Assembly: GCA_018266175.1 (NCBI GenBank)
Contig: JAFEAY010000016.1
Location: forward strand, 1,029 to 65,028
DNA: 64,000 bases
Direction: 5' to 3'
Origin: Candidatus Babelota bacterium
Lineage (GTDB): Bacteria > Babelota > Babeliae > Babelales > RVW-14
The translations under genes were made by a program, and so were the position numbers. The notes beneath the pieces were generated by a model. That model was not told the origin of the DNA. It saw only the letters and a list, made by a program, of their open reading frames with translations, and made no database searches. Position 1 is the stretch's first letter; each line of letters begins with the position of its first letter. Shown here piece after piece: positions 1 through 37,686 of the stretch.

Positions 1-2
1 AT

Positions 3-374
3 GCTTTAGCATATGCTCAAGGCGATAAAACTAGAGGTGTTGAAACAATCGTCACTGTGTCAAAAATTAACGTTAAAGCCATTAGACAAAAGACGGGTCT
101 CACTCAAGAAGCATTTTCTCAACTTTTTGCTATAAAAGTTAGAACGCTTCAGGATTGGGAACAGCACAGAAGAAATCCAAGCATTGCAGCGCGTATCTTT
201 TTATCATTAATTGATCAACATCCATCAACAGTCAAAAAAACGTTAAAGTCTCTGGGCTATCCCCTTAAATCTTCTGTCGGCAAAAGCAAAGCAATATCCA
301 AGCCCAAAGTAAATAAATCTTCTAGAAAAATTGAGGATCCTCGACCAATTAAAAATAAATTGCGGCTTCGTTAA
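3..374 (+). CDS. XRE-family helix-turn-helix protein, antitoxin-like (MqsA/HigA-style); 5' end cut by the window edge
   Basis: The frame is open from position 3 (ALAYAQGDKTRGVETIVTV...), so the GTG at 57 is probably internal. The motif 'VKAIRQKTGLTQEAFSQLFAIKVRTLQDWEQHRRNPSIAARIFLSLI' matches the common HTH antitoxin pattern (IR..lGlSQ..FA..fG.s.rTlq.WEqGrr.P.g.a..ll). The tail is Lys/Ser-rich. Confidence 0.6.
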   Translation, partial: ALAYAQGDKTRGVETIVTVSKINVKAIRQKTGLTQEAFSQLFAIKVRTLQDWEQHRRNPSIAARIFLSLIDQHPSTVKKTLKSLGYPLKSSVGKSKAISKPKVNKSSRKIEDPRPIKNKLRLR

Positions 375-497: not shown

Positions 498-2552
498 TTA
501 TGCAACAATTGCACTGAAACAGCTACTCACCAATTGAAAACGTTTTTGAAAATAATCTGGCAATGTTACAAAAACATGACGCCAACCATCACCAAGATTA
601 ACAACCTCGCTTTGTTGATAACATCGCTCAAGCTGAACAACCAGTGCAATCTGTTCAAACGAAAGGTCTGGATATAAATTCCACACCTTAATCGTTCCAT
701 CAGCAGAGGCAAAAACCAGTCCACCATCATTCAGTTGCTCGATACATCTAGCCCAAACTCTATGCTCATCAAGTGGGGCAATGCATCTATTGGTATTTAA
801 ATCCCACACCTTAATCGTTCCATCACAATAATCAGAGACCAGTCGACGATCATCCAGTTGATTGATGCAACTAACAAAACGTGTATGCGCCTCAAGCGTG
901 ACAACGCACCTGTTGGTATTCAAATCCCACACCTTAATCGTTCCATCATCAGAACCAGAAGCCAGTCGACCATCATCCAGTTGCTTGATGCATTTAACCA
1001 AACGTGTATGCGCCTCAAGTGTGGCAACGCACCTGTTGGTATTTAAATCCCACACCTTAATCATTCCATCACCAAAACCACAAATCAGTCTACCATCTTT
1101 CCGTAGCTTAATGCATCTAATCCAATGTTTATGCCCCTCAAGTGTGGCAACGCACCTGCTAGTATCCAAATCCCACACCTTAATCGTTCCATCATCAGAA
1201 CCAGAAACAAGTCGACCATCATCCAGTTGCGTGATGCAATTAACCCAATCTGTATGCCCCTCAAGTGTGGCAACGCATCTGTTGGTGTTTAAATCCCACA
1301 CTTTAATCGTGTTATCATTTGAACAAGAAACCAGTCGACCATCATTCAGTCGCTTGATGCATTTAACCGAACTTGTATGCCCCTCAAGTATGGCAACGCA
1401 TCTGTTGGTATCCAGATCCCAAATCTTAATCGTTTTATCTTTTGAACAAGAAACCAGTCGACCATCATCCAGTTGCTTGACGCAATTAACCCAATTTGTA
1501 TGCCCCTCAAGTATACTCACACTCACTTCAGCTCCTTCATTATCACCTACCATTAAGCATTCTGGAAAATAGTGGGCATACGATGTCATTGATGATTCAC
1601 TAAAACTGTGCTGCATCACATCATACCGGCTTGCTCTGCCGATCTCCCGATTCATGAGCATCGAAAAATTGTTCGGCACTTGCGCAGAAAGCCGATCAAA
1701 GAGTCCCTGATCCAGATCTTGGGTTATGTCGACATGATTGATTATCTGTTTGAGCTGTGCAACAAATTGCGTGTCACTGGTTGCTCCAGAAAAAATTCTT
1801 GCGCCTTTTTTGCAATGTTGATCATTAACCAAAGCTTGTGATGGAAAGTTTTCATCTGAATATTCAATCATTTCTATCTCTGAACTTTCACAAATCAGAT
1901 TTTCTTTTTGCGCTTCTTGCTCACGCGCTTCGCGTTCATGCATAAGCTCAAGATTCAATTGCAGCTGCAATGCTTGCGCCAGCTTTTCATCATCTCCAAC
2001 ATCCGGTTGCACCGCAATTTCAATGCCGCATGCTGATAAATCTCCCATACTCTGCAACGCTTCCAAACTTTGAATATTTCCACAAGCCAAAGCATCGCAA
2101 TGGCGTTTGTTCTGTATAAACTCGCAAAGAATGTGCTCAAGACTATGCTGTTCTTGCTGCACCTCAAGCAAGCGACATGACGGATTATTAACCGCAATTG
2201 CTTGCTCAAAATCCACAAAAAATCTTTGCATTATTTCAATTTTTCTTTTGATCAGATCGGTATCGTTAAGCTCCATAAATTCCAAAAGAATTGTCGGATC
2301 TTTTTCTATTTTTTTACAGAGTTCTTTGTATGCACTGTTTATCACTTCAAAATTTGCTTGAAAATTTTCAACTCCTGGATTTTCTTGCAAATTTTCAGAG
2401 CACGTTGTAAAAACCTTGATTGCAGGATTAAAGATGTTGAGCAAGCACTTAACTCGCTGGTGCACCCCTTGCTCAAAGAAATTTCCATTCATGGCCTGTG
2501 CTGTATTTGCCAATAAAACAATCGTAAGAATAAGCATCAACCGTGTAACCAT
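498..2552 (-). CDS. Exported WD40-repeat protein, paralogue 1 (signal peptide, Cys-containing N-domain, acidic linker, 7 WD blades, conserved C-terminal YPD...LPDYFQKRF module)
   Basis: N-terminus MVTRLMLILTIVLLANTAQA looks like a Sec signal peptide. Seven repeats of the type 'LxDGRLVSxSxDxTIKVWDLNTNRCVATLEGHTxxVxCIxQ'. ATG is preceded by AAGG (rc 'acaaggttttttATG'). Confidence 0.9.
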   Translation of the reverse strand: MVTRLMLILTIVLLANTAQAMNGNFFEQGVHQRVKCLLNIFNPAIKVFTTCSENLQENPGVENFQANFEVINSAYKELCKKIEKDPTILLEFMELNDTDLIKRKIEIMQRFFVDFEQAIAVNNPSCRLLEVQQEQHSLEHILCEFIQNKRHCDALACGNIQSLEALQSMGDLSACGIEIAVQPDVGDDEKLAQALQLQLNLELMHEREAREQEAQKENLICESSEIEMIEYSDENFPSQALVNDQHCKKGARIFSGATSDTQFVAQLKQIINHVDITQDLDQGLFDRLSAQVPNNFSMLMNREIGRASRYDVMQHSFSESSMTSYAHYFPECLMVGDNEGAEVSVSILEGHTNWVNCVKQLDDGRLVSCSKDKTIKIWDLDTNRCVAILEGHTSSVKCIKRLNDGRLVSCSNDNTIKVWDLNTNRCVATLEGHTDWVNCITQLDDGRLVSGSDDGTIKVWDLDTSRCVATLEGHKHWIRCIKLRKDGRLICGFGDGMIKVWDLNTNRCVATLEAHTRLVKCIKQLDDGRLASGSDDGTIKVWDLNTNRCVVTLEAHTRFVSCINQLDDRRLVSDYCDGTIKVWDLNTNRCIAPLDEHRVWARCIEQLNDGGLVFASADGTIKVWNLYPDLSFEQIALVVQLERCYQQSEVVNLGDGWRHVFVTLPDYFQKRFQLVSSCFSAIVA

Positions 2553-2595
2553 AAAAAACCTTGTATTCTATAAAAGAGAAAATCAATGCCGTAAA

Positions 2596-4359
2596 TCAAC
2601 CAACAACCGATTGAAAGCGTTTTTGAAAATAGTCTGGCAATGTTACAAAAACATCTCGCCAGCCATCGCAAAGATTAACGCGGTTGTCATCTTGATAACA
2701 TCGCTCAAGCTGAACTATCAGTGCAATCTGTTCGAATGAAAGGTCTGGATATAAATTCCACACCTTAATCGTTCCATCACCTGAACACGAAGCAAGTCGA
2801 CCATCATCCAGTTGCTTGATGTAATTAACAAAACTTGTATGCCCCTCAAGTGTAGCGATGCACTTATTAGTATTTAAATCCCATAACTTAATCGTTTCAT
2901 CATCTGAACAAGAAACAAGTCGCCCATCTTTCAGTTGCTTGATGAATAAAACCCCTTCAAGATGCCTCTTAAGTGTGGCAATACACCTAATTTCATTGAG
3001 ATCCCACACCTTAATCCATCCATACCTTTGTTCATCGTCATCGAAGTACACACCGCTCTCATCTGATGAACAAGAAACAAATCGAGCATCATCCAGTTGC
3101 TTAATGCAATTAATTGTATCTGTATGCCCCTCAAGTGTAGCGATGCACTCATTAGTATTTAAATTCCAAAGCTTAATCATTCCCTCATCTGAACTACCAT
3201 CAGATTCCTCATCTGGACGAAAACTAGAGCCAGAAGCTAGTCGATTCTCATTCAGTTGCTTGATACAACAAACCTCTGCAAAATGACCTTCAAGCGTGAC
3301 AAAGCACTTGTTGGTATGCAAATCCCACAACTTAATCGTTCTATCATGAGAGCCAGAAGCAAGTCGACCATCACTCAGTTGTTTGATGCAACTAACTAAA
3401 TCTGTATGCCCCTCAAGCGTGGCAACGGATGTATTTGTATTCAAATCCCATATCCAGATCATATTATCACTTGAACCAGAAGCAAACCGACTATTAGGCA
3501 GCAGAGTTATGCAATAAGCCACACTTCTATGCCTTTCAAGTGTGGAAACGCATGTATTTGTATTCAAATTCCATACCCTGATCGTTTTATCACTTGAGCC
3601 AGAAGCAAGACGACCATCAGGCAGCAGGGTTATGCAATAAACCCAACCTCTATGACCTTCAAGCGTGGCAACGCATGTATTTGTATTCAAATCCCATACC
3701 CTGATCGTATTATCCCGCGAAGCAGAAGCAAGGCTACCATCTGACAGTTGCGTTATGCAATAAACACAATCTTTATGCCCCTCGAACGTAGTACATGGTA
3801 CATCTTTTTTAATCATGCATTCTGGAAAATAGTGTGCATAAGAAGTCATGTGCGACTCACTAAAATTATGTTGCATGATATCATAGGTGCTTGCTCTGCC
3901 AATTTCTCGATTCATCAACATTGAAAAATTGGTTGGAGCACGTGCTGCAAGCCTGTCAAAAAAATCTTGATCCAAATTTTTGGTTATATCTACTTCGTTG
4001 TAAATTATTTGTTTGAGTTGGGCAACATACTGAGCATTATTTGTTGCTCTTGAAAAAACTTCCCCAGTGCGTATCACTGGGTCTTGATCTTTATCATAAA
4101 ATTCTTCATCTGAGTAAAATTCACTATCTTCAAAATCATCTTTATCAGCTACGCTATCACCTATGAAATCTTGATTTTCACACACCTCAGGTATATCTGT
4201 AGCTTGTTCATTTTGATCGCTGACAATACTCTGATCTTCATCAACTTTGACAACTTTGTTGTTGTCATTAATAAGATCTTGATTATCCCGCTCGCGCTTA
4301 CCAGCATGGACACTGTTAAGCGACAGACCAAACATTAGCAAAATTAAAAAACGTTTCAT
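2596..4359 (-). CDS. Exported WD40-repeat protein, paralogue 2 (different acidic N-region, 8 blades, same mid-domain and C-terminal module)
   Basis: Signal peptide MKRFLILLMFGLSLNSVHA. Shares 'NFSMLMNREIGRAS.YD.MQHNFSES.MTSYAHYFPEC' and the tail 'YPDLSFEQIALIVQLERCYQ...GWRDVFVTLPDYFQKRFQ' with paralogue 1. GGAGG lies 7 nt upstream of the ATG. Confidence 0.9.
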   Translation of the reverse strand: MKRFLILLMFGLSLNSVHAGKRERDNQDLINDNNKVVKVDEDQSIVSDQNEQATDIPEVCENQDFIGDSVADKDDFEDSEFYSDEEFYDKDQDPVIRTGEVFSRATNNAQYVAQLKQIIYNEVDITKNLDQDFFDRLAARAPTNFSMLMNREIGRASTYDIMQHNFSESHMTSYAHYFPECMIKKDVPCTTFEGHKDCVYCITQLSDGSLASASRDNTIRVWDLNTNTCVATLEGHRGWVYCITLLPDGRLASGSSDKTIRVWNLNTNTCVSTLERHRSVAYCITLLPNSRFASGSSDNMIWIWDLNTNTSVATLEGHTDLVSCIKQLSDGRLASGSHDRTIKLWDLHTNKCFVTLEGHFAEVCCIKQLNENRLASGSSFRPDEESDGSSDEGMIKLWNLNTNECIATLEGHTDTINCIKQLDDARFVSCSSDESGVYFDDDEQRYGWIKVWDLNEIRCIATLKRHLEGVLFIKQLKDGRLVSCSDDETIKLWDLNTNKCIATLEGHTSFVNYIKQLDDGRLASCSGDGTIKVWNLYPDLSFEQIALIVQLERCYQDDNRVNLCDGWRDVFVTLPDYFQKRFQSVVG

Positions 4360-4416
4360 CGTATAACCTCCGTACGAAAAACAGATAATTCAAATAAATT
4401 ACAATAAATAATTACA

Positions 4417-4445
4417 AATTTATATAAATATAGTCAATTTGTCAA
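4417..4445 (-). promoter_or_regulatory. Candidate sigma70-type promoter for WD40 paralogue 2 (TTGACA-17 nt-TAAATT)
   Basis: On the minus strand TTGACA is at 4445-4440 and TAAATT at 4422-4417, with a 17-nt spacer, about 58 nt upstream of the ATG at 4359. The region is AT-rich, so a chance match is possible. Confidence 0.3.
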
Positions 4446-4506
4446 AAATTAATTTATCCCTGAAAAAGAGGTAAGCCCAGGGATAACGATGCCGTCCGCC
4501 CGCTTA

Positions 4507-4716
4507 CTTGACTTACAACCTGCTCATGATAAGGTGATAGCCCAGGGGCACGTGAAACATTACAACGCTTGAAACGATCATGCTGGTAAGGAGAGTGTGT
4601 GAACAAAATCAATATTCCAGTCGTTATTCTGGCTGGAGGACTCGGAACTCGATTACGCTAAGAAACTGAATTTAGACCAAAACCGATGGTGCCAATTGGT
4701 GGTAAGCCAATTTTGT
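4507..4716 (+). pseudogene. Duplicated fragment of the rfbF upstream region plus its first ~39 codons, inactivated by an in-frame TAA
   Basis: 4507-4542 'cttgacttacaacctgctcatgataaggtgatagcc' parallels 9057-9092. From GTG 4599 the fragment reads [38 protein letters not shown], against the intact [39 protein letters not shown] at 9152. The stop codon is at 4659-4661. Confidence 0.8.
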
Positions 4717-4765
4717 GCTGCATCACATCATACCTGCTTGCTCTGCCGATCTCCCGATTCATGAG
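4713..4765. repeat. 53-bp exact duplicate of an internal WD40-gene segment (5741-5793), joined to the 3' end of paralogue 3
   Basis: 'ttgtgctgcatcacatcatacctgcttgctctgccgatctcccgattcatgag' occurs identically at 4713-4765 and 5741-5793. A copy with one mismatch lies around 1606-1658. In the intact copies it encodes MLMNREIGRASRYDVMQH on the minus strand. Confidence 0.9.
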
Positions 4766-6690
4766 TGCTGAACAACCAGCGCAATCTGTTCTAATGAAAG
4801 GTCTGGATACAAATCCCATAGCTTAATCGTTCTATCATCTGAACAAGAAGCAAGTCGCCCATCATTCAGTTGCGTGATGAATCTAACCCAATTTCTATGC
4901 CCTTCAAGTGTGGCAACGCACCTATTAGTATTTAAATCCAACAGCTTAATTGTTCCATCATCAGAACAAGAAGCAAGTCGCCCATCATCCAGTTGCGTGA
5001 TGCAATTAACCCAATCTCTATGCCCCTCAAGTGTGGCAACGCACCTGTTGGTATCAAAATTCCACACCTTAATCGTTTTATCACGAGAACAAGAAACAAG
5101 TCGCCCATCATTCAGTTGTTTGATACATATAACCGAATTTCTATGCCCTTCAAGTGTAGCGATGCACTCATTAGTATTCAAATCCCACACCTTAATCGTT
5201 TCATCATGTGAACCAGAAACAAATCGACCATCATTCAGTTGCGTGATGCATCTAACCAAATCTCTATGCCCCTTAAGTGTGGCAACGCACCTGTTGGTAT
5301 CCAAATTCCACAGCTTAATTGTTCCATCATCAGAACAAGAAGCAAGTCGACCATCATTCAGTTGCGTGATGCAATTAACCCCGCTTTTATGCCCCTCAAG
5401 TGTGGCAACGCACCTGTTAGTATTTAAATCCCATAACTTAATCGTTCTATCACAAGAACAAGAAACAAGTCGCCCATCATTCAGTTGCTTGATGCATTTA
5501 ACCGAGCCTGCATGCCCCTCAAGTGTGACAAAGCACCTGTTGGTATTCAGATCCCACACCTTAATTGTTTTATCACGAGAACCAGAAGTAAGTCGCCCAT
5601 CATTCAGTTGCTTGATGCAATTAACCCAACCTGTATGCCCTTCAAGTGTACTTACGTGTACTGCCGCTCCTTCATTACCACGTACCATTAAGCATTCTGG
5701 GAAATAGTGTGCATACGAAGTCATTGGTGGTTCACTAAAATTGTGCTGCATCACATCATACCTGCTTGCTCTGCCGATCTCCCGATTCATGAGCATCGAA
5801 AAATTGCTCGGCACTTGGGCAGAAATCCGATCAAACAGAACTTGATCCAGATCTTGAGTTATGTCGACATGATTGATTATCTGTTTGAGCTGTGCAACAA
5901 ATTGCGTGTCACTGGGTGCTCCAGAAAAAATTCTTGCGCCTTTTTTGCGCTTTTGATCATTAACCAAAACGTCTTGTGAAAAGTTTTCATCTGAATATTC
6001 AACAATTTCTATCTCTGAACTTTCACAAATCAGATTTGCTTTTTGTGCTTCTTGCTCACGCGCTTCGCGTTCATGCATCAACTCAAGATTCAATTGCAGC
6101 TGCAATGCTTGCGCCAGCTTTTCATCATCTCCAACATCTGGCTGCACTGCAATTTCAATGCCGCATGCCGATAAATCTCCCATACCCTGCAACACTTCCA
6201 AGCTTTGAATATTTCCACAAGCCAAGACATCGCAATGGTGCTTGTTTTTTATAAACTTGCCAAGAATGCGCTCAAGACTATGCTGTGCTTGCGGCGCGTC
6301 AAGCAGGCGACATGACGGATTATTAACCTCAATTGCTTGCTCAAAACCCACAAACAGGTTTTTTATTGTTTCAATTTTTTCTTTGATCAGATCTGTATCT
6401 TTGGGCTCCATAAACTCCAAAAGAATGGTCGGATCTTTTTCTATTTCTTTACAGAGGTTTTTGTATGCACTGTTTATCACTTCAAAATTTGCTTGAAAAT
6501 CTTCAACTCCTGGATTTTCTTTCAAATTTTCAGAGCACGTTGTAAAAACTTTGATTACAGGATTAAAGATGTTGAGCAAGCGCTCAACTCGCTGATGCAC
6601 CCCTTGATCAAAGAAGTTGCCGTTCATCGCATGTGTATTACTCATGAACATTGTTAAAACGAGTGAGAAATAAAGAATGGGAATATTCAT
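4759..6690 (-). CDS. Exported WD40-repeat protein, paralogue 3; C-terminally truncated, lacking the LERCYQ...LPDYFQKRF module
   Basis: The N-domain and mid-domain are very close to paralogue 1, with 7 blades. The protein ends '...YPDLSLEQIALVVQHS*', where the reading frame runs into the out-of-frame 53-bp duplicate. The likely start is ATG 6690 (MNIPILYFSLVLTMFMSNTHA, preceded by rc 'caaggtttttactATG') rather than the ORF-track start at 6738. Confidence 0.85.
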   Translation of the reverse strand: MNIPILYFSLVLTMFMSNTHAMNGNFFDQGVHQRVERLLNIFNPVIKVFTTCSENLKENPGVEDFQANFEVINSAYKNLCKEIEKDPTILLEFMEPKDTDLIKEKIETIKNLFVGFEQAIEVNNPSCRLLDAPQAQHSLERILGKFIKNKHHCDVLACGNIQSLEVLQGMGDLSACGIEIAVQPDVGDDEKLAQALQLQLNLELMHEREAREQEAQKANLICESSEIEIVEYSDENFSQDVLVNDQKRKKGARIFSGAPSDTQFVAQLKQIINHVDITQDLDQVLFDRISAQVPSNFSMLMNREIGRASRYDVMQHNFSEPPMTSYAHYFPECLMVRGNEGAAVHVSTLEGHTGWVNCIKQLNDGRLTSGSRDKTIKVWDLNTNRCFVTLEGHAGSVKCIKQLNDGRLVSCSCDRTIKLWDLNTNRCVATLEGHKSGVNCITQLNDGRLASCSDDGTIKLWNLDTNRCVATLKGHRDLVRCITQLNDGRFVSGSHDETIKVWDLNTNECIATLEGHRNSVICIKQLNDGRLVSCSRDKTIKVWNFDTNRCVATLEGHRDWVNCITQLDDGRLASCSDDGTIKLLDLNTNRCVATLEGHRNWVRFITQLNDGRLASCSDDRTIKLWDLYPDLSLEQIALVVQHS

Positions 6691-6818
6691 AGTAAAAACC
6701 TTGATTAACACAAACTTGATAATTAAAATACCCCACAAACCTTGATCAAATCGAATATATCACCACTCAAATTCTTCGATACACCTCGCTGCGCGAGGCA
6801 CTCAGGACGAGCAAAATG

Positions 6819-6840
6819 TAAGCCTTATCCAATAGGCTTA
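6819..6840 (-). terminator. Possible intrinsic terminator hairpin downstream of WD40 paralogue 4
   Basis: TAAGCCT / AGGCTTA forms a 7-bp stem. On the minus strand it is followed by 'cattttg'. A second hairpin CCTCGC-tgc-GCGAGG lies at about 6784-6798. Confidence 0.3.
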
Positions 6841-6879
6841 TCCCGCAAATTTGAATTATCGAATTCGCGTTGGTTAACT

Positions 6880-8922
6880 TCAGCTTACAAACTGTTCAAA
6901 GCGCTGCCAAAAATAGTCTGGTAGTGTTTCAAAAACATCCCACCAGCCTTCACCAAGAACAACAACTTTGGATTTTTGAAAATATTGCTCAAGATTAACA
7001 ATAAGCGCAATCTGTTCAAGCAAGAGATCATCATAAAAATTGAATATCTTAATATTCCCATTTTTCAAACCCGCCACAAGTCTACCATCGAGCAGTTGTG
7101 TTACATAACAAAAACAACCTTCTTTATTTAAGGAAATTGCCTTGACAGATTTTCCTTTTTTCAAATCCCATATCACGATTCTATGATTACATACCACAGC
7201 TACATGGCCATCATGTAACTCTTTTATACAATGAATCTCTGTCATATTGTGAGATAATTGAGCAATCAACTTCTTGGTCTTTAAATTCCATACCATCATC
7301 TTTCCATCAGATGAGCACGAAACAAGATTCCCATCACGCAGTTGCTTGATAAAATAAACTATACCCTCATGCCCGTTAAACGTGAAAAGACACTCTTTTG
7401 TATTTAAATCCCATATTTTAATTGTTTTATCGTCTGAACAAGAAGCAATATGACCACTATTTAATTGTTTTATGCAATTAACAATATTAGAATGCTTGAA
7501 AGTCGCGATACACTCCTTCTTATTCAAATCCCAAATTTTAACACTTGTATCCATTCCCCCAGATGCAAGATAACCATTATCCAGTTGTTTAATACAGTTA
7601 ATCCAACTATTATGCCCATAAAGATTGGCAATTACAATATTTGAATCCAAATCCAACACTTTAATTGGTTGACTATCTGAAAACAAAGCAAAGCTTCCGT
7701 CATTCAATTGTTTTAAATGTATTTGACTTCCATTAATCTTTTTTTGTATTGAAACATAACTACTTGTATTCAAATCCCACACCACTCTGGTACCATCACT
7801 TAAACAACAAGCAATTCGAGTATCATCTAACTGTTTTATAAAAAAAATCGAATCTCTTGAATTTCCAAGACTAATAGTTTGTAGAGCTTCAACTTCTCCA
7901 TTTCCATTCATCATGCATTCCGGAAAATGATGCGCATAAGAAGGCATGCAAAAATTGTGCTGCATAAGATTATACGGTGTTGCTCTGCCAATCTCTCGGT
8001 TCATCACCATCGAAAAGTTGGTTGGCGCATGCGCTGCAAGCTTGTTGAATAATTCTTGATCGAGCTTTTTGGTTATATCCATTCCGTAGATTATTTTTTT
8101 GAACTCTGCAATAAATTGTGTATCATTTGTTACGCCAGAAAAAATTGATGCCCCTCTTTGTTGTGTACTCTGGCATTCAGGCAAAACTTCTTCGTTAGAA
8201 AAACATTCAACCATTTCTATGGCTTGTTCATCTACCAAATTTTCATTTCTGAGATGTCCATTAAGCACACTTCGTTCTTGTGCTTCCCGCTCATACATCA
8301 ATTCAAGATTAGACTCAAGATTCAACTTCTGTTGCAGCTCCTGCGCAAGCTTTTCATCATCTGCAGTGTGCGGCTCTACAGTAATTTCAACCCAATCAAA
8401 CGCTTCTTGTTTGCGCTCAAAAAATGCTTCTAACGTTTCCATATTTCCTTGAGCCAGCGCATGACAGTGACATTTATTTTTTATAAACACATTCATAATG
8501 TGCTTCAGATTTTCCTGCTGGGACCCTGCATGCTCAAGCAACGAATACTTCGGGGTGTTAGCTGAAATAACTTGATGAAAAATATCAAAATAATTTTTTA
8601 TTGTTTCAATTTTTTCTTTGATTTGGGAAGTCTCTTTGAGTTCCATGAACTCGAACAGAAGGGACTGATCTTGTATTTTTTCGCACAGCGTTTTATATGC
8701 AGTGTTTATCACTGCAAAGTTTGTTTGAAAATTTTCAAGGCCAGGATTTTCTTTCAAATTTTCTGAACATGTCCTAAAAACGTTGATTGTGGGATTAAAG
8801 ATGTTGAGCAAATGCTCAACGCGCTGGCAAGTTCCCTGCTCGAAAAGATTATTGTTCATGGCATGAGTGCTGCTCATAAATGTTGCTACGATGAGTGAGA
8901 AAAATAGAGCGTGTAATTTCAT
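6880..8922 (-). CDS. Exported WD40-repeat protein, paralogue 4 (most divergent; same domain order)
   Basis: Signal peptide MKLHALFFSLIVATFMSSTHA. Same N-domain pattern (NLFEQG.CQRVEHLLNIFNPTINVF.TCSENLKENPG), 'DDEKLAQELQQKLNLE', the mid-domain 'NFSMVMNREIGRATPYNLMQHNF', 7 degenerate WD blades and the tail 'LLLEQIALIVNLEQYFQ...GWWDVFETLPDYFWQRFEQ'. I chose ATG 8922 by analogy of 'caaggttttgactATG' with the paralogues; the ORF track starts at 8928. Confidence 0.85.
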   Translation of the reverse strand: MKLHALFFSLIVATFMSSTHAMNNNLFEQGTCQRVEHLLNIFNPTINVFRTCSENLKENPGLENFQTNFAVINTAYKTLCEKIQDQSLLFEFMELKETSQIKEKIETIKNYFDIFHQVISANTPKYSLLEHAGSQQENLKHIMNVFIKNKCHCHALAQGNMETLEAFFERKQEAFDWVEITVEPHTADDEKLAQELQQKLNLESNLELMYEREAQERSVLNGHLRNENLVDEQAIEMVECFSNEEVLPECQSTQQRGASIFSGVTNDTQFIAEFKKIIYGMDITKKLDQELFNKLAAHAPTNFSMVMNREIGRATPYNLMQHNFCMPSYAHHFPECMMNGNGEVEALQTISLGNSRDSIFFIKQLDDTRIACCLSDGTRVVWDLNTSSYVSIQKKINGSQIHLKQLNDGSFALFSDSQPIKVLDLDSNIVIANLYGHNSWINCIKQLDNGYLASGGMDTSVKIWDLNKKECIATFKHSNIVNCIKQLNSGHIASCSDDKTIKIWDLNTKECLFTFNGHEGIVYFIKQLRDGNLVSCSSDGKMMVWNLKTKKLIAQLSHNMTEIHCIKELHDGHVAVVCNHRIVIWDLKKGKSVKAISLNKEGCFCYVTQLLDGRLVAGLKNGNIKIFNFYDDLLLEQIALIVNLEQYFQKSKVVVLGEGWWDVFETLPDYFWQRFEQFVS

Positions 8923-9006
8923 AGTCAAAACCTTGCGTTTTAGAAGTACAATAAGAAAATCTTTGTATGTTTACACTAAAAATTCGTAACGGTCAAAAAA
9001 ACAATT

Positions 9007-9052
9007 TTATGCAACAATTGCACTGAAAAAGCTCCTCATCGATTGACGCTTT
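9007..9052 (-). pseudogene. Orphan remnant of the last ~15 codons plus stop of a WD40 paralogue
   Basis: 'ttatgcaacaattgcactgaaaaagctcctcatcgattgacgc' closely parallels the 3' end of paralogue 1 at 498-540 ('ttatgcaacaattgcactgaaacagctactcaccaattgaaaacg', encoding ...SSCFSAIVA*). Similarity stops where the rfbF upstream region begins. Confidence 0.6.
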
Positions 9053-9057
9053 CTTTC

Positions 9058-9085
9058 TTGACTTCCCACCGACTCATGATAAGGT
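9058..9085 (+). promoter_or_regulatory. Candidate promoter of the glycan operon (TTGACT-16 nt-TAAGGT)
   Basis: TTGACT is at 9058-9063 and TAAGGT at 9080-9085. The block 'cttgactt...ctcatgataaggtgatagcc' is conserved in the duplicated copy at 4507-4542. The -10 element is weak. Confidence 0.3.
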
Positions 9086-9151
9086 GATAGCCATGTAGGA
9101 GAGGCTTGAAACGTTGCCGTACAGGAACGATCATGCAGATGAGGAGAGAGT

Positions 9152-10039
9152 GTGGATAAGATCAATATTCCGGTCGTCATATTAGCTGGTGGGCTTGGAA
9201 CACGGCTTCGCGAAGAAACTGAATTCAGACCAAAACCGATGGTCCCCATTGGCGGCAAGCCGATGTTGTGGCACATCATGAAAATCTATTCATCATACGG
9301 TTTTTACCGATTCATTATTTGCCTTGGTTACAAAGGCGAAATGGTTAAACACTATTTTTTGAACTATCGCTTTGACGGTGTAGATTTTACCCTCAACACC
9401 AAATCAGGAGCTATTACTGAACATCAAGCAAATGATGAAGAATGGGAAATAACCCTTGCAGACACAGGACAAGATTGTATGACCGGAGGCCGCATAGCTC
9501 GTGTTGCACGGTATATCGACACGCCAACTTTTTTACTCACCTATGGTGATGGCCTGAGCAATATTAACATTGCCAATACCCTTGAATATCATCGCAGCCA
9601 TGGAAAATTGGTAACACTTTCTGGCGTGGCTGCACCTTCACGTTTTGGCAATCTTGAACTTGAAGAAAATAAAGTTGTCTCTTTTTTAGAGAAAAAACCG
9701 CTTACACAAGAATGGGTAAATGGTGGATTTTTTGTCTGCCAAAAAGAATTTTTAAAATATCTTTCACCCGACTCAAGCTGTGTACTTGAACAAGAACCGC
9801 TCCGCAAAGCAGCTCATGACAACCAGCTCATGATCTATAAACATCATGGCTTCTGGCAATGCATGGACACTCTGCGCGAACAACAAAAACTTGAAGAGCT
9901 CTGGTCCACAAGTGCACCATGGAAAGTTTGGGCCGATAAAAGCTTTACTCCAGCAACCAAAGATCTTTCTGAACAAGCAATAAAATCTTGCCCTGAAGCA
10001 GGAATGGCATCACATGACGCACAGGAAAAACAACTATGA
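9152..10039 (+). CDS. rfbF: Glucose-1-phosphate cytidylyltransferase
   Basis: 'VVILAGGLGTRLREETEFRPKPMVPIGGKPMLWHIMKIYSSYGFYRFIICLGYKGEMVKHYFLNY' is the characteristic RfbF/DdhA N-terminus. GTG start. It carries an unusual C-terminal tail of roughly 35-40 aa after 'APWKVW'. Confidence 0.9.
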   Translation: MDKINIPVVILAGGLGTRLREETEFRPKPMVPIGGKPMLWHIMKIYSSYGFYRFIICLGYKGEMVKHYFLNYRFDGVDFTLNTKSGAITEHQANDEEWEITLADTGQDCMTGGRIARVARYIDTPTFLLTYGDGLSNINIANTLEYHRSHGKLVTLSGVAAPSRFGNLELEENKVVSFLEKKPLTQEWVNGGFFVCQKEFLKYLSPDSSCVLEQEPLRKAAHDNQLMIYKHHGFWQCMDTLREQQKLEELWSTSAPWKVWADKSFTPATKDLSEQAIKSCPEAGMASHDAQEKQL

Positions 10040-12034: not shown

Positions 12035-13027
12035 ATGAAGAAAGTTCTTGTTACCGGAGGATCTGGGTTTATAGGTTCCAACCTCATACGATCACTTCTT
12101 GGGCCAGAACATGAAATATATTTGCTTGTTCAACCCAACGACACCCTGTGGAGAATTAAGGATATCGCCGACAAGCTGATTATTTTTTACATAGGGTTAA
12201 CCGAATTTTCAACCATCAATACCGTTATATCGGTTATCAAGCCGGATATTATTTTTCATCTTGCCTCGTTTGGCGGTATGCCTTATGAAACAGACTCAAA
12301 AGCTATTTTTGATGTCAATTTCTATGGAACGCTCAACCTCCTCAATGCATGCAAAAAAGTAGGCTTTGAATGCTTTATTAATACCGGAAGCTCTTCAGAA
12401 TATGGTAAAAAAAATATTCCGATGCATGAAGATTTAGTCCTTGAACCCATCAGTGACTATGCGGTCTCAAAAGCAGCAAGCACACAACTCTGCTTGAAAG
12501 AAGCACTCTTTAATAAACTCCCCATCTACACGGTACGACCATTTTCGGTCTACGGTGATGCAGAGTTACATACCAGACTGATTCCTACTATTGCACTCAG
12601 CATTGTCTGTAACGAACCACTTCAGCTTTCATCACCATATTTAGTGAGAGATTTTATTTATATTGATGATATGATTGCGCTCTTGCAAGCAGTCGCTGAT
12701 AAAAAACCTACAAATCATTTCATTTTTAATGCAGGCAGCGGCGTTCAATCAAGCATTCAAGATGCTGTTAATGCAGCACAATTACTACGTGCATTTCCTG
12801 GAGAAGTTCAATGGGGTAAACATACACCTCGCCCTTGGGAACCCACTCATTGGGTTGCAGACATTACACGATCACAAACAGTCCTGGAATGGACTCCTCG
12901 CTTCACGCTGACAACAGGACTTGAAAAAACAATTATATGGTTTAAAAATAATCTCCATCTTTATGGCGAAAGGTTGGGGGCCTATGTACCAGCTTCAAGC
13001 ACAAGCAAGCAACCTGAAACTATCTGA
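12035..13027 (+). CDS. NAD(P)-dependent sugar epimerase/reductase (extended SDR)
   Basis: 'VLVTGGSGFIGSNLIRSL' Rossmann motif and 'YAVSKAAS' YxxxK motif. Confidence 0.75.
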   Translation: MKKVLVTGGSGFIGSNLIRSLLGPEHEIYLLVQPNDTLWRIKDIADKLIIFYIGLTEFSTINTVISVIKPDIIFHLASFGGMPYETDSKAIFDVNFYGTLNLLNACKKVGFECFINTGSSSEYGKKNIPMHEDLVLEPISDYAVSKAASTQLCLKEALFNKLPIYTVRPFSVYGDAELHTRLIPTIALSIVCNEPLQLSSPYLVRDFIYIDDMIALLQAVADKKPTNHFIFNAGSGVQSSIQDAVNAAQLLRAFPGEVQWGKHTPRPWEPTHWVADITRSQTVLEWTPRFTLTTGLEKTIIWFKNNLHLYGERLGAYVPASSTSKQPETI

Positions 13028-13838
13028 TCCAGAGCTGCCTAAGATTATTGCAGAGCATGCACAAAACATGCGACTCAACATTCTTGATATGCTCACCAAA
13101 GCAAAAAGTTCTCACCTTGGATGTTCATTTTCGGTGGTCGATATTTTAGCCGTTGTTTATCACGCTTTTTTAAATGTTGAATCAATTAAGCAGCAACAAC
13201 TTGATCGCGATTACTTTATTTTGAGCAAAGGGCACAGTGCCGCAGCACTCTACACCGCGCTTGCTAGCGCTGGCATTATTCCTGAAGAAATTTTAAAAAC
13301 CCACTACCAAGATGGTAGCGTTTTGTGCGGACACCCGATGAAGGGAGCACTTCCAGGCATAGAGTCAAGCACCGGCTCACTTGGGCATGGCCTTTCACTT
13401 GCTGTTGGACTTGCACTTGCAGCAAAACATAATGGTACAAATAATAAAATTTGTGTACTTGTTGGCGATGGCGAATGCCAAGAAGGCTCAATTTGGGAAG
13501 CAATTACCATGGCTGCCCGCTTCAAGCTCAACAACCTGACCGTTATTGTTGATTACAATAATCTACAAGGGCTTGATATCACTGACGACATTATGCCAGG
13601 AACCTTTGAAGAAAAATTTAAAGCATTTGCTTGTAACCCAATCTCAGTTGATGGCCACAATATTGAAGCGTTGCTTGCTGCTTTTGCACAAACTGGAAGA
13701 ACTGATAAGCCGGACATTATTGTTGCCCGTACGCACAAGGGTCATGGCGTTTCTTTTATCGAAGATAAAATTGAATGGCATTACAAATCATTTTCTCCCG
13801 AGCAATTTTCTCAAGCTCATAAGGAGTTATGTTCATGA
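12984..13838 (+). CDS. Transketolase, N-terminal (TPP-binding) subunit
   Basis: 'HLGCSFSVVDILAVVY', 'LSKGHSAAALYTALA', 'GSLGHGLSLAVGLALA', 'GDGECQEGSIWEA'. The start is uncertain: in-frame candidates are 12921, 12963 and 12984. I chose 12984 to minimise overlap with the preceding gene. Confidence 0.85.
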   Translation: MYQLQAQASNLKLSDPELPKIIAEHAQNMRLNILDMLTKAKSSHLGCSFSVVDILAVVYHAFLNVESIKQQQLDRDYFILSKGHSAAALYTALASAGIIPEEILKTHYQDGSVLCGHPMKGALPGIESSTGSLGHGLSLAVGLALAAKHNGTNNKICVLVGDGECQEGSIWEAITMAARFKLNNLTVIVDYNNLQGLDITDDIMPGTFEEKFKAFACNPISVDGHNIEALLAAFAQTGRTDKPDIIVARTHKGHGVSFIEDKIEWHYKSFSPEQFSQAHKELCS

Positions 13839-14821
13839 GAAATATATTTCTTAACTACCTAACGGAACAAGCAGCAATTGACCCCAACCTTTACTTAATC
13901 GTTGGTGATGTTGGCTATTCAGTTATTGAAAAATTTCAAGAACGTTTTCCTCAACGCATGATCAATGCTGGGGTTGCTGAACAAAATATGATCGGCATGG
14001 CTGCGGGTCTTGCAATGGCAGGTAAAAATGTTTACGTCTATTCAATTGTTCCCTTTGCCTGCATGCGCAACTTTGAACAAATTCGGATCGACATTTGTTA
14101 CCAAAATTTACCGGTAAAAATTGTCGGCAACGGTGGTGGATTTTCTTATGCGCAGGCAGGCGTTACGCATCATGCGCTTGAAGATGTTGCAATTATGCGC
14201 GCACTGCCAGGTATGACGGTTGTCAGCCCTGGCTCTAAAAAAGAGGTTGGCGACTTAATGCCTCAAATCAACGCTCTTCAAGGACCTGCGTATCTACGTC
14301 TTGCGAACAACGAAGAGCTCGTAACCTACGAAGATCAAACAACATGCAAACTTGGTAAAGCTATTGAACTTATTACACACGATGAGGTGATCATTGTTGG
14401 AACGGGGAACGGGCTAGACCTTGCATGGGAAACTTGTAAAGCCTTGGAAACTATTGGGATACCTGTTGGACTGGTGAGCATGCCAACCATTAAACCACTT
14501 GATAGTAAGTTTTTTCTTGCACGGCATAAAAATTTAAAAGCTGTTTTTACCATCGAAGAACACAGTGTCATTGGTGGACTTGGTGAGGCAACAGCTCGCT
14601 TTGTAGCAGAAACAATGCCGAACAAAATTATTTTCAAATCATTTGGTGTTCAAGATTTTTACTACCACACTGTTGGCTCACGTGCATATCTTAAAAAACA
14701 TGCCGGGCTTGAAGGCGAACAGATTGCAACACAGATCAAAAAGCTCCTTGTCGATTATGCATCTTCTACGGTCATGCAATCATCGAATACTGGGCCAGCG
14801 ATAACACATAACCACATTTAA
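13835..14821 (+). CDS. Transketolase, C-terminal (pyrimidine-binding) subunit
   Basis: 'INAGVAEQNMIGMAAGLAMAGKNVYVYSIVPF', 'THHALEDVAIMRALPGMTVVSPG'. ATGA overlap with the upstream subunit, and AAGGAG lies 8 nt before ATG 13835 (the ORF track starts at 13829). Confidence 0.85.
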   Translation: MRNIFLNYLTEQAAIDPNLYLIVGDVGYSVIEKFQERFPQRMINAGVAEQNMIGMAAGLAMAGKNVYVYSIVPFACMRNFEQIRIDICYQNLPVKIVGNGGGFSYAQAGVTHHALEDVAIMRALPGMTVVSPGSKKEVGDLMPQINALQGPAYLRLANNEELVTYEDQTTCKLGKAIELITHDEVIIVGTGNGLDLAWETCKALETIGIPVGLVSMPTIKPLDSKFFLARHKNLKAVFTIEEHSVIGGLGEATARFVAETMPNKIIFKSFGVQDFYYHTVGSRAYLKKHAGLEGEQIATQIKKLLVDYASSTVMQSSNTGPAITHNHI

Positions 14822-15836: not shown

Positions 15837-17537
15837 ATGAAAAAAATTCCCGCAAAACATTTACTCGCACTTCTTTCGTTCCTTGTAGTCTTCCTTATTT
15901 TAGGAATTCCCTACACAACGATTGGCTTTGACTCTGATTGTTTTGGATTGGTATTTTTTAGCGCACAGATAAAAAATTTTTATGATCTTGTACTTCAGCT
16001 CTTTAAACCAATTCAATCATCCTACGTAGCGCTCAATGAACTCACAACACATGCGCCCGAGGGTTTTTTAACCTACTTTCGCCCCTTCATGACACTTGCT
16101 CATTACATATGCTACCAAGTTTTTGGATTTAATCCTTATGCGTATCATTTAGTAAATGTAGGACTGCATGCTTTAACAACAAGCACTTTGGTTTATTTAT
16201 TTTCAGAGTTTTTAAACTGTTGGATTGCCTTTTTACTTGGACTGGCATTTGCGTTTCATCCTGCACTCACACCCGCGTATGTTGGTGTTACCTCGCATGT
16301 TGTTCCAGGATATTTATTCTGGGCTCTCATGCTGCTTGCATACCTAAAATTTTTAAAAACTGACCAACAACGCTGGCACCTTTTGGCGGCCTTTCTCTTT
16401 TTATTGTCACTGCTTTGTTACGAAATAGTTATTGTTTTTCCCGTTGTTTTGCTGTTGTTTTTGGTAATTTTTAAATATGACAACATCATCAAAAAATCAT
16501 ACTTATTTCTTATCGCAATACTCAGCTATCTTACCACACGCTATTTCCTGCTTGGACCTGCAGCAGCTCACGAACAAAAAGCATTAGCGCTAACATCTTT
16601 GCCTCATAAAATAATATTGAATTGGCATCAAGCAATAAAGCCATTTTGGGGGCTTCAAAACGCTTCTAAAGTTACAACAATCACAGTAATGACAACATTT
16701 TTTTACTTCTTTTTTATGATTTTTTTTCAAACTCCAGAGCGAAGAAGACGGTTTATTTTTTACGTACTTTCATTTTTCTTACTTGCATGGCCAATAAGCT
16801 TAGTAAGCCCTGATGGTCGTTATTTTTATCCAGCAATTCCAGTATTTACGCTAATCCTTTACGAGATGATTTCGCACCTTGCAATGCTCATAGACAAAAG
16901 TTCACGTAAAGATCTTTTCAACCTAGCTCTTTATTTAAAAAATGGTATTGCTTTACCATTTTTATTAATGCATTTTATCGGATGGGGAATTTTTCACGAT
17001 AGACAAGCACTTGCAACGCGTACTTTTGTTACACACCAACGAGATCAAGCATTTCAAAGTATTGCCGACCATTATAAAAACATTCCAGATCTGCGTTTGA
17101 TTATGATTGGAACACTTCATTGCTATAACAGCGACACCTTGCTCATGCAACAAGGCATGACGCAAGCTGCACGCCTTTTTTTCAAAAACCCAGAGCTTGA
17201 AGCATACCACGTTACGCAAGCAAAAATTTATAGTATTCAAAGCACAAATTGTTCGTTTCACATTCAACAACTTGCAAACGGCTTTCGCTTCACGTCACCC
17301 CTACCAGAGAAATTATTTTTTATGATTCCTCACGCTTGGCAGCAAGAGACACCTATTCCTTTTTCAATGGGGACAATTATTGTGCATAAAAAGTCTGCTC
17401 CCTGGAAAGCAAGTGATATCTCTTTTATTTTTGATGAAACGTGGCTGGCGGCAAGCGATTTGGTAAGAACCAAATTTGTTACCTTTGATCTCAACCTCTG
17501 GAGCTTTGTTCAACTTGAACTTGGTGAAAAAGTATGA
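15837..17537 (+). CDS. Polytopic membrane protein, putative GT-C-fold glycosyltransferase (ArnT/PMT-like); Wzy/ligase-like role not excluded
   Basis: About 10 or more hydrophobic helices in the first ~380 aa, an acidic 'FDSD' motif after TM1, and a soluble C-terminal domain. It sits in an operon with the ArnC-like GT2. The family assignment is inference. Confidence 0.5.
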   Translation: MKKIPAKHLLALLSFLVVFLILGIPYTTIGFDSDCFGLVFFSAQIKNFYDLVLQLFKPIQSSYVALNELTTHAPEGFLTYFRPFMTLAHYICYQVFGFNPYAYHLVNVGLHALTTSTLVYLFSEFLNCWIAFLLGLAFAFHPALTPAYVGVTSHVVPGYLFWALMLLAYLKFLKTDQQRWHLLAAFLFLLSLLCYEIVIVFPVVLLLFLVIFKYDNIIKKSYLFLIAILSYLTTRYFLLGPAAAHEQKALALTSLPHKIILNWHQAIKPFWGLQNASKVTTITVMTTFFYFFFMIFFQTPERRRRFIFYVLSFFLLAWPISLVSPDGRYFYPAIPVFTLILYEMISHLAMLIDKSSRKDLFNLALYLKNGIALPFLLMHFIGWGIFHDRQALATRTFVTHQRDQAFQSIADHYKNIPDLRLIMIGTLHCYNSDTLLMQQGMTQAARLFFKNPELEAYHVTQAKIYSIQSTNCSFHIQQLANGFRFTSPLPEKLFFMIPHAWQQETPIPFSMGTIIVHKKSAPWKASDISFIFDETWLAASDLVRTKFVTFDLNLWSFVQLELGEKV

Positions 17538-35744: not shown

Positions 35745-35756
35745 ACTCTCTCTTTT

Positions 35757-37604: not shown

Positions 37605-37686
37605 AGCTCCCCCCCCCACTTTATATTTGTAGAGCAATCGGGCTAGAATACTCCAGCCCGTTACCCCTCAAGTATTAACGTTTTTT

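Follow-up and report, generated by a model that had tools for sequence, protein, structure and literature searches.

A tandem family of multi-module WD40 propeller proteins with putative export signals in Candidatus Dependentiae

The window analysed here is a 64,000-nucleotide stretch of Candidatus Babelota bacterium DNA (contig JAFEAY010000016.1, assembly GCA_018266175.1). Near its left edge, the open reading frame (ORF) listing contains four head-to-tail WD40 paralogues on the minus strand (498-8928), designated G1 to G4. The module order shared by the family is a Sec-type signal peptide, a helical N-domain (~145 aa), an acidic linker, a mid module (~90 aa), WD40 blades of 41 residues each and a C module (~50 aa). 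This order was obtained from the alignment of G1-G4 with four outside relatives and from a six-frame hidden Markov model (HMM) inventory of the N, mid and C modules, the profiles of which score at E 1e-43 to 1e-163 and on family members only. A preliminary description of the locus, made from the sequence, had proposed a tandem array of four minus-strand paralogues with a common multi-module architecture, and the ORFs, the family alignment and the HMM inventory bear this out.

Architecture and recombination history of the array

The genes and modules of the array, all on the minus strand, are as follows.

498-2552, minus strand: G1, complete paralogue of 684 aa; Pfam WD40 E 1.9e-62; N, mid and C HMMs all match
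2493-2552, minus strand: G1 putative signal peptide, MVTRLMLILTIVLLANTAQA then MNG; Kyte-Doolittle mean 3.2, A-x-A site, upstream AAGG (heuristic)
2058-2492, minus strand: G1 helical N-domain, residues 21-165; AlphaFold2 model all helical
1812-2057, minus strand: G1 linker, conserved acidic helix (DDEKLAQALQLQLNLELMHEREAREQEA; model residues 168-195) then an acidic stretch
1551-1811, minus strand: G1 mid module, residues 248-334; ..QFVAQLKQII..NFSMLMNREIGRA..YAHYFPEC
675-1550, minus strand: G1 seven-bladed WD40 propeller, repeat period 41 aa / 123 nt
498-674, minus strand: G1 C module, tail and stop, YPDLSFEQIALVVQLER...GWRHVFVTLPDYFQKRF; family HMM 109 bits
2596-4359, minus strand: G2, 587 aa, with signal peptide and long acidic linker, without N-domain; Pfam WD40 E 3.7e-61
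3811-4080, minus strand: G2 mid module
2752-3810, minus strand: G2 WD40 propeller, 8 blades
2596-2751, minus strand: G2 C module
4759-6690, minus strand: G3, 643 aa from ATG 6690 (ORF open to 6738), with signal peptide, N-domain and linker; Pfam WD40 E 4.4e-70
5686-5946, minus strand: G3 mid module
4810-5685, minus strand: G3 WD40 propeller, 7 blades
4759-4809, minus strand: G3 C module remnant
6880-8922, minus strand: G4, divergent paralogue of 680 aa (ORF to 8928), with signal peptide, N-domain and linker; Pfam WD40 E 3.8e-23
7909-8160, minus strand: G4 mid module
7036-7908, minus strand: G4 WD40 propeller, 7 partly degenerate blades
6880-7035, minus strand: G4 C module

The ATG codons at 6690 (G3) and 8922 (G4) are likelier starts than the listed TTG codons. 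The sequence AAGGTTTT, which resembles a ribosome-binding site, lies directly upstream of the ATGs of G1, G3 and G4, and GGAGG is found 7 nt upstream of that of G2. When searched in full against Pfam, G1-G4 match WD40 and many propeller families and no other family.

The cysteine-containing helical N-domain is limited to paralogues 1, 3 and 4, as had been described, being missing from G2, and the blade number of seven or eight given earlier is likewise correct (seven in G1, G3 and G4, eight in G2). Two of the eight G2 blades carry acidic loop insertions of 12-13 aa. The C-terminal module, said to be common to all four proteins, is present in G1, G2 and G4; in G3 it is cut after 16 residues, at a recombination junction. 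The G1 C-terminal tail (..SCFSAIVA) is unusual. The mid- and C-module motifs quoted in the preliminary description were found in the proteins as claimed. Across the family, the mid module reads QFVAQLKQII..VDIT..LDQ.LFDRL.A..P.NFSMLMNREIGRA...YAHYFPEC, and the C module, directly after the last blade, reads YPDLSFEQIALVVQLER...GW..VF.TLPDYFQKRF, also read as YPDLSFEQIAL...LPDYFQKRF. The consensus of the conserved acidic helix is DDEKxAQxLQLxLNLELMHEREAQE.

Just beyond the left edge of the window lies a fifth paralogue, G0, with 681 aa, 7 blades and an intact C module. It is complete and was found at 19474-21519 of L008, an independent JGI assembly. The gene order in L008 is G4, G3, G2, G1, a RelE/MqsA-like pair and G0, so that the array comprises five genes. 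The pair consists of a RelE-like toxin and an MqsA-family helix-turn-helix antitoxin (L008 18549-19322; window 1-374, plus strand), and the left edge of the window cuts the antitoxin gene. Repetitive ORFs of 142-277 aa run antisense over the WD repeats (862-1572, 2858-3286 and 4874-5707, plus strand); they almost certainly arise as by-products of the repeats and are not genes.

The intergenic DNA carries copies of pieces from elsewhere in the array, as detected by reading the sequence and by families D10, D12 and D14 of the DNA repeats in the window.

4360-4765, minus strand: recombination scar between G3 and G2, containing three copied pieces
4695-4765: copy of a mid-module fragment (mid HMM fragment match 4661-4822)
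4573-4725: 80% copy of 9126-9278, the 5' end of the cytidylyltransferase gene and upstream DNA
4503-4542: 88% copy of 9053-9092
8999-9278, no strand assigned: array boundary segment upstream of G4, overlapping the cytidylyltransferase start at 9152; repeat families D12, D13 and D14

Just past the G3 stop, another frame reads LMNREIGRASRYDVMQH, a 92-100% copy of a mid-module segment. Pieces of the boundary segment recur at 4503-4725 and at 490-537, the latter, at the 3' end of G1 with its odd tail, being an 88% copy of 8999-9046. The gene that adjoins the array at this boundary encodes a glucose-1-phosphate cytidylyltransferase (TIGR02623, E 5e-101). Judged from their sequences, the copied segments are scars of unequal crossing-over that carried the original boundary of the array along. 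Tandem gene duplication through unequal crossing-over has thus diversified the family.

Neither this arrangement nor the truncation of G3 is an assembly artefact, because L008 is collinear with the window (98.9% identity over 18.9 kb), differs from it by 1 base across the 9-kb array and has the identical truncation. In three more short-read assemblies, G4 is present with 0-1 nucleotide differences, and all three assemblies break inside the repeats. A protein identical to G4 is present in four other assemblies. Nearly all differences between the window and L008 fall within three O-antigen-type genes on the plus strand (12035-13027, 13829-14821 and 17534-18703), which diverge by 3.3%, 7.8% and 7.1% compared with 0-0.1% elsewhere and look like strain-level recombination blocks within a locus for surface polysaccharide.

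Blade exchange and a hypervariable top face

Pfam model PF00400 matches seven stretches each in G1, G2 and G3, and three in G4. The 23 blades aligned have the consensus IKVWDLNTNRCVATLEGHxxxVxCIxQLxDGRLxSxSxDxT, in which H18, S35/S37, D39 and W4 are near-invariant, and they therefore contain the GH and WD dipeptides and the Asp-His-Ser/Thr-Trp tetrad. The closing motif of the blades is W-D-L-[N/D], with N occupying column 7 in 18 of the 23 and D in the other 5; Arg never occurs there, and the WDxR (DWD) motif is absent. Ranked by total score, a 14-bladed Nostoc WD40 protein and designed propellers head the PDB matches; ranked per aligned stretch, the best natural match is FBXW7 (150.8 bits; 40.5% identity over 210 aa by BLASTP). 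The blades had been thought nearer to eukaryotic FBXW proteins than to bacterial WD40s, a view that the comparison overturns, as metagenomic and bacterial WD40 proteins from outside the family, including NACHT-linked, kinase-linked and Endozoicomonas proteins, reach 45-49% identity over 281-297 aa, which covers the whole propeller (BLASTP). On alignment, the blades are canonical and FBXW7-like in consensus, without a specific eukaryotic origin. Neither NACHT nor NB-ARC is among the Pfam matches of the full proteins, and no Pfam match falls in the N or mid regions. A PADLOC scan for defence systems matched the WD region only.

The repeats, with a period of 123 nt, are 60-86% identical in DNA. 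Blades are about as similar within genes (identity 0.58-0.75) as between genes (0.60-0.71), and there is no positional orthology, in that a blade of one paralogue does not find its best match in the blade at the same position of another. Identity between family members is also mosaic from module to module. Modules and blades have thus been exchanged between paralogues. WD40 proteins have been divided by internal identity into highly repetitive (>= 0.7) and moderately repetitive (>= 0.4) classes by Hu et al. 2017 (PMC5587647), who described highly repetitive WD40s, with repeat exchange and homogenisation, in prokaryotes and fungi; the same processes have been described for the Podospora HNWD genes (PMC1805685). 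By mean blade identity, G0 (0.73), G3 (0.73) and a more distant paralogue, G5 (0.75), are highly repetitive and G1 (0.64) and G2 (0.58) moderately repetitive, although our simple pairwise measure may differ from that of PMC5587647.

Six of the 41 blade columns are hypervariable, namely three after GH, one after the Val of strand A and both flanks of the Asp in the B-C turn (GH-xxx-V-x-C...S-x-D-x-T). The pooled ratio of nonsynonymous to synonymous substitution rates (dN/dS) is 4.4 in these columns compared with 0.29 in the rest, which are under purifying selection. Changes were also counted column by column, by parsimony on a neighbour-joining tree of the 23 blades. In columns 20, 23 and 38, nonsynonymous changes accumulate at 2.4-2.5 times the synonymous rate of the whole tree (Poisson p 7e-5 to 3e-4, significant after Bonferroni correction for 41 columns), and columns 19, 21 and 40 reach 1.7-1.9 times. 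As located by alignment with FBXW7, the six positions with this excess of amino-acid change lie on the top face of the propeller. In the HMMER alignment, column 23 pairs with the residue flanked by V and C in HTSTVRC, and column 38 with the R of SGSRDAT. These columns probably correspond to R465 and R479 of FBXW7, and column 23 also to R505 by repeat register, if the crystallised construct starts at residue 263, as we take it to do. R465, R479 and R505 are the arginines of FBXW7 that contact the phosphodegron.

Orphan modules in a lineage-restricted family

Conservation within the family is highest in the mid and C modules. Identity between members ranges from 40 to 92% for the mid module (in members in which it is complete) and from 46 to 88% for the C module, compared with 23-71% for the propeller and 27-80% for the N-domain. 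The mid module of P0022, one of the outside relatives, has an internal deletion and is 30-58% identical to the others.

No described domain was matched by any of the three modules. For the N-domain, no Pfam match at E <= 10 and no PDB sequence match was obtained. Its G1 version was modelled by AlphaFold2 as seven helices (mean predicted local distance difference test, pLDDT, 73.7; predicted template modelling score 0.65), and Foldseek searches of the PDB with this model returned generic helical bundles only (best E 0.075, TM <= 0.31). The mid module has no Pfam (E <= 10) or PDB sequence match; modelled on its own it folded poorly (pLDDT 46), and Foldseek with that poor model returned nothing, a result that carries no information. 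No Pfam or PDB sequence match was found for the C module. The expectation that the non-WD modules would match no common bacterial domain was therefore supported by the Pfam, PDB, fold and profile searches alike.

Several assignments of these modules and of the acidic helix to known domains were considered and not upheld. The mid module had been placed where an F-box would be; it does lie directly before the propeller, but it is not an F-box, as neither PF00646 nor PF12937 matches at E <= 10 and hhalign gives a probability of 0.1% against an F-box profile. That profile was validated by recovering 42 F-box chains from the PDB. PDB searches with the N+mid profile at a cut-off of E <= 10 returned no F-box chain and showed no similarity to the linker region of FBXW7. 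By eye, the C module looks SOCS-box-like, with S-L-x-x-I-A-L followed after ~23 residues by L-P-x-x-F-x-x-x-F. At the sequence level this was not upheld, as Pfam PF07525 does not match and hhalign gives 0.2% against a SOCS-box profile (likewise validated, by recovering SOCS1-4, ASB7/8/9 and SPSB3 from the PDB). With the C-module profile and the same cut-off, SOCS, VHL and Vif chains were all missing from the PDB matches, and Pfam searches over the modules returned no F-box, SOCS-box, U-box or BTB domain. The acidic helix DDEKLAQALQLQLNLE was compared with the UIM/MIU pattern e-e-e-x-L-x-x-A-L-x-x-S-x-x-e, in which Ala and Ser are conserved. Pfam UIM (PF02809) does not match, Q stands in place of the Ser, and the Ala is replaced by E or Q in G4, P0003, P0007 and P0019. 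Finally, the mid and C modules are not duplicates of each other (hhalign 0.1%).

About ten residues separate the end of the mid module from the N-terminal strand that completes the last blade, and the C module starts right after the C strand of that blade. Given standard WD40 geometry, the two would lie side by side on the rim of the last blade. This geometry and the conservation of both modules suggest that they probably form one composite helical unit, which would explain why the mid module did not fold alone.

The gene family is real, bounded and lineage-restricted. An exhaustive search of 1.84 billion cluster representatives with the N+mid profile returned six proteins only, all of them family members or fragments, and no distant relatives. 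Full-length searches identified only four outside relatives with the architecture (P0003, P0007, P0019 and P0022), and none of ~110 generic WD40 matches has an N, mid or C module. Scans for the module patterns in GTDB species representatives, JGI metagenome contigs and IMG/VR viral contigs found no family members. A non-exhaustive word-index search for the C module returned one fragment only. An NCBI fragment of 122 aa, which differs by one residue from the C-terminus of G0, is labelled Candidatus Dependentiae bacterium. The relatives, on contigs from related organisms, are again multi-copy, with three genes in tandem on L002, two each on L007 and L001, and one on L006. The notion of an expanding family thus holds, given the tandem copies, the recombination scars and the multiple copies in relatives.

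The family gene of L006 adjoins the same sugar cluster as the array in the window. In L001, L002 and L006, the WD family is followed by genes for a NAGPA-like phosphodiester glycosidase (with a signal peptide in L002), a sulfotransferase, an APH/fructosamine-kinase-like protein and an ankyrin-repeat protein; in L002 and L006 an SNF2-type helicase follows. This block is not next to the array in the window. The phosphoglucosamine mutase of the window has relatives at 87-99% identity; it is 50-55% identical to its best named relatives, from Candidatus Babeliales/Dependentiae, and 38-40% identical to those of Legionella and Helicobacteraceae. This enzyme and the labelled G0 fragment assign the window to Dependentiae (TM6). 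The mutase of L003 (CAYSDC010000108.1), a GTDB species representative, is 87% identical to that of the window, and the label 'uncultured Pseudomonadota bacterium' of that contig is probably wrong, given the Dependentiae/Babeliales affinity of the protein. Housekeeping proteins of the window score well below NCBIfam cut-offs. Rfam detected no rRNA or other RNA family in the window, and a promoter and terminator scan gave counts not above those of shuffled sequence.

Two other loci of the window encode proteins with signal-like N-termini. A second tandem family (34518-39549, minus strand), with no Pfam or NCBIfam match, includes paralogues of 626 and 620 aa that are 50% identical; a 408-aa protein of this region shares only its last 103 residues (80%), and all three end in ..ERNK. 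The 719-aa protein encoded at 30285-32444 (plus strand) has a weak PD40/WD40-like match (TolB-like, E 3e-9) and is unrelated to the family described here.

Predicted export, possible functions and known systems

As the preliminary description had proposed, sequence features predict Sec signals in all four proteins, a hydrophobic stretch being followed by AQA, VHA, THA and THA. In searching for type I signals, we looked for a positive n-region, a hydrophobic core of 7-15 residues and small residues at -3/-1, a heuristic procedure only. Signal-like N-termini were found in all 11 members examined, with a best 11-residue Kyte-Doolittle mean of 2.3-3.5 and then a small-x-small site (AQA, VHA, THA, TIA, VQA, AIA, TQA or LNA). 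In G3 and P0019 the n-region has no basic residue. The segment is only 14-81% identical between members, yet it stays open and hydrophobic, and ribosome-binding sites precede the ATG of the signal peptide. Cysteine accounts for 3.1-4.4% of residues in G1-G4; the figure for six other window ORFs whose N-termini are signal-like is 0.2-1.3%. There are about three Cys per blade, and two of the positions (strands D and A) are also Cys in the FBXW7 alignment. This richness hints at a reducing destination compartment.

A GspF-like gene and pseudopilin genes are present at 58-63 kb of the window. They belong to a cluster resembling type II secretion or type IV pilus loci (58097-62953), in which the GspF/PilC-like protein scores 366 bits to GspF (cut-off 424) and is accompanied by two prepilin-type N-methylation proteins and a weak GspK-like protein. 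This cluster is a possible outer-membrane route for exported proteins. The core genes of the Dependentiae (TM6) include those for type II secretion and type IV pili, and the presence of WD40, F-box, LRR, TPR and ankyrin proteins in the phylum has been noted (PMC4776705). In Chromulinavorax, a cultured member, 44% of coding sequences and 78% of ankyrin proteins have signal peptides, and these proteins have been read as Sec-dependent secreted effectors (PMC6561590). Cultured Dependentiae are obligate intracellular parasites of amoebae and flagellates.

A distant relative of the array proteins is encoded in the same window.

54711-56417, plus strand: G5, likely start 54723; signal peptide; shares only the portion made up of WD blades and C module
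55962-56153, plus strand: diverged C module of G5
56265-56279, plus strand: KKRKR in the acidic/basic tail of G5
56403-56414, plus strand: CSIM, at the C-terminal end ...NPCSIM* of G5

G5 has 8 very homogeneous 41-aa blades of another consensus, on average 37% identical to the G1 blades, and lacks the helical N-domain. Its C module was recognised by hhalign (87.5%, E 3.6e-6) and scores 16.7 bits, above all 5,000 shuffles. A mid-like module seen by eye in its N-terminal region was rejected (hhalign 0.5%). The C-terminus has the form of a CaaX prenylation box, and CSIM is also the CaaX box of prelamin A. G1-G4 have no CaaX end. Such an end is useful only in the eukaryotic cytosol.

The best-supported reading, to which we give even odds, is that the G1-G4 family represents lineage-restricted, secreted host-binding effectors of Candidatus Dependentiae (Babeliales), obligate intracellular parasites of protists. 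Secretion into the host is favoured because of the export signal, the Cys content, the CaaX end of G5 and what is known of the phylum. A cleavable Sec signal, as predicted from sequence features, would carry each protein across the inner membrane, and the protein would leave the cell through the type II secretion/type IV pilus-like machinery or in outer-membrane vesicles. In the host cell, the top face of the 7-8-bladed propeller may bind host proteins or peptides. The mid and C modules, flanking the propeller where the N-terminal closing strand meets the last C-terminal strand, could act as a composite unit that contacts a constant partner, with the helical N-domain as an optional accessory that is absent from G2 and G5. 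Specificity would diversify by duplication, by exchange of modules and blades, and by positive selection on the top face. A more ambitious version, which we consider improbable, is that blade exchange and selection create a self-diversifying effector repertoire, and that mid and C form a novel composite domain that couples each host protein so captured to an unvarying host machinery, for instance a cullin-RING ligase adaptor, without an F-box or SOCS box.

Several points weigh against secretion into the host. A Sec signal alone takes a protein only to the periplasm, and the ~20-30 cysteines of each protein would be awkward in transit through this oxidising compartment. The CaaX box was seen once, in one distant paralogue, and searches for relatives of G5 found nothing. 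Since no relative of the N, mid or C module is detectable, the 'constant partner' is a guess. As for selection, amino-acid entropy served for the initial choice of the hypervariable columns, so that their pooled dN/dS is inflated, and the tree-based test applies parsimony to a tree of recombining repeats and ignores recombination within blades.

Alternatively, the proteins would stay in the envelope, as binders that are periplasmic or surface-displayed after Sec export and use the variable face to bind host surface molecules, with a role in attachment, uptake or host range, or envelope components; the array would then adjoin an O-antigen cluster because both shape the cell surface. We hold this, the foremost of the rivals, to be unlikely. 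The signal peptide is the only targeting feature present, the family is directly beside a CDP-sugar/O-antigen-type cluster in the window, L006 and L008, and strains diverge in that cluster in a mosaic manner, as is usual for surface loci. Adhesins and receptor-binding proteins, too, typically undergo tandem expansion and diversifying selection. However, a gene order shared among close relatives is only weakly indicative of a functional link, and Pfam scans revealed no lipobox, transmembrane anchor, autotransporter or other surface-anchoring module. A Cys content of 3.1-4.4%, at three positions per blade, argues for a reducing compartment, and the CaaX-type end of G5 makes sense only in the eukaryotic cytosol. 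We know of no canonical GH/WD-type WD40 propellers that serve as extracellular adhesins. A very unlikely explanation is that the proteins are cytoplasmic, starting at a Met after the hydrophobic stretch and having no working export signal, or that the locus is largely decaying duplicate DNA. In most members a Met does immediately follow the predicted cleavage site, little is left of the C module in G3, the DNA between the genes is debris of recombination and the G4 blades are degenerate. In contrast, P0007, P0019 and G2 keep the hydrophobic segment without a Met after the cleavage site, ribosome-binding sites lie before the upstream ATG and not before the internal one, and the N-terminal segment remains open and hydrophobic despite its divergence. 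In addition, purifying selection acts on the non-hypervariable columns (dN/dS 0.29), mid and C are conserved across at least five related assemblies, and the proteins have no NTPase, kinase or other cytoplasmic signalling domain of the kind usual on bacterial WD40s.

Mimicry of ubiquitin-ligase substrate receptors is a special case of secretion into the host. The propeller would recruit host targets while mid and/or C docks Skp1, Elongin B/C or DDB1, in a layout like that of FBXW7, in which an F-box precedes the propeller, or of WSB1, in which a SOCS box follows it. F-box mimicry by intracellular bacteria is established, and HIV Vif has the BC box SLQYLA. AnkB has been cited as an example of an F-box mimic (PMC4776705). 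Short helical modules do lie directly before and after the propeller, FBXW7 is the closest natural solved structure, and the C module looks by eye BC-box-like and Cul-box-like. Nevertheless, Pfam detects no F-box, SOCS box, U-box or BTB domain, hhalign gives 0.1% for the F-box and 0.2% for the SOCS box, and the blades end in W-D-L-N, not in the DDB1-binding W-D-x-R. Such docking is quite unlikely on this evidence.

The family is a concrete and bounded candidate in a phylum that is widespread and almost uncultured, and in which manipulation of protists is little known beyond lists of repeat-domain genes. A constant partner is to be expected for the two orphan modules that are strongly conserved. 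If the host cytosol is indeed reached, the pattern of highly repetitive WD40s with a hypervariable top face would extend from intracellular immune-type sensors to secreted effectors, and two new small domains would become available for characterisation; if the reading as a self-diversifying repertoire is true as well, the diversification logic of fungal and bacterial NOD-like receptor (NLR) sensor domains would be used offensively by a parasite. Practical value is limited, as there is no cultured organism or known host.

Among known systems, the signal-peptide-bearing repeat proteins of Dependentiae, such as the ankyrin-repeat proteins (98 in Chromulinavorax destructans, PMC6561590), come from the same phylum and likewise combine a Sec-type signal with interaction repeats typical of eukaryotes. 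Repeat proteins of the phylum also share with the present family paralogous expansion, presumed secretion (Sec plus type II or vesicles) and presumed host manipulation. The family differs from the ankyrin proteins in its WD40 fold, its fixed architecture with three orphan modules, its homogenised blades and its hypervariable top face. In a limited literature search, no such WD40 family was found to be described in PMC6561590 or PMC4776705.

Highly repetitive WD40 proteins of prokaryotes and fungi, among them the Podospora NLR family with HNWD, HET-D and HET-E (PMC5587647, PMC1805685, PMC2873952), resemble the present family in their high internal blade identity and in repeat exchange within and between paralogues. 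Positive selection falls in both on codon pairs that flank a conserved residue of the interaction face (x-V-x and x-D-x here; codons 7/9 and 25/27 in HNWD), and the closest database WD40s of the family, which are NACHT- or kinase-linked, belong to the highly repetitive class. In contrast to these proteins, the family has no NACHT, NB-ARC or other NTPase domain and no kinase domain, a single propeller of 7-8 blades instead of 14 or more blades, and a Sec signal. In a parasite with a reduced genome, its role is likely offensive or host-directed, not one in intracellular self/non-self sensing.

FBXW7, Cdc4 and beta-TrCP share with the family a similar blade consensus and a helical module directly N-terminal of the propeller. 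The propeller of FBXW7 is eight-bladed; most family members have seven blades, with a signal peptide, no F-box, no similarity to the FBXW7 linker and closer matches among bacterial WD40s. WSB1/WSB2 and HIV Vif are comparable in that a module of ~50 aa directly follows the propeller and, by eye, motifs like the BC and Cul boxes occur. However, these are spaced by ~23 residues in the C module compared with ~9-17 in aligned SOCS boxes, and the SOCS profile gives 0.2%. Legionella AnkB is a CaaX-bearing effector, and Legionella effectors are type IV substrates. G5 may parallel AnkB in joining a eukaryote-type interaction domain to a CaaX box and a basic cluster, as would suit host prenylation and membrane targeting. 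This CaaX-like end is found in G5 only, not in G1-G4, and G5 has a Sec signal, unlike the type IV effectors of Legionella.

To our knowledge, there is no precedent for a canonical WD40 propeller behind an export signal. What is new is a WD40 architecture with three orphan modules and an export signal, and with no NTPase, F-box or SOCS box. In kind, the family fits among the signal-peptide-bearing, eukaryotic-like repeat proteins already known from Dependentiae, and its mode of evolution fits that common to highly repetitive WD40 sensors.

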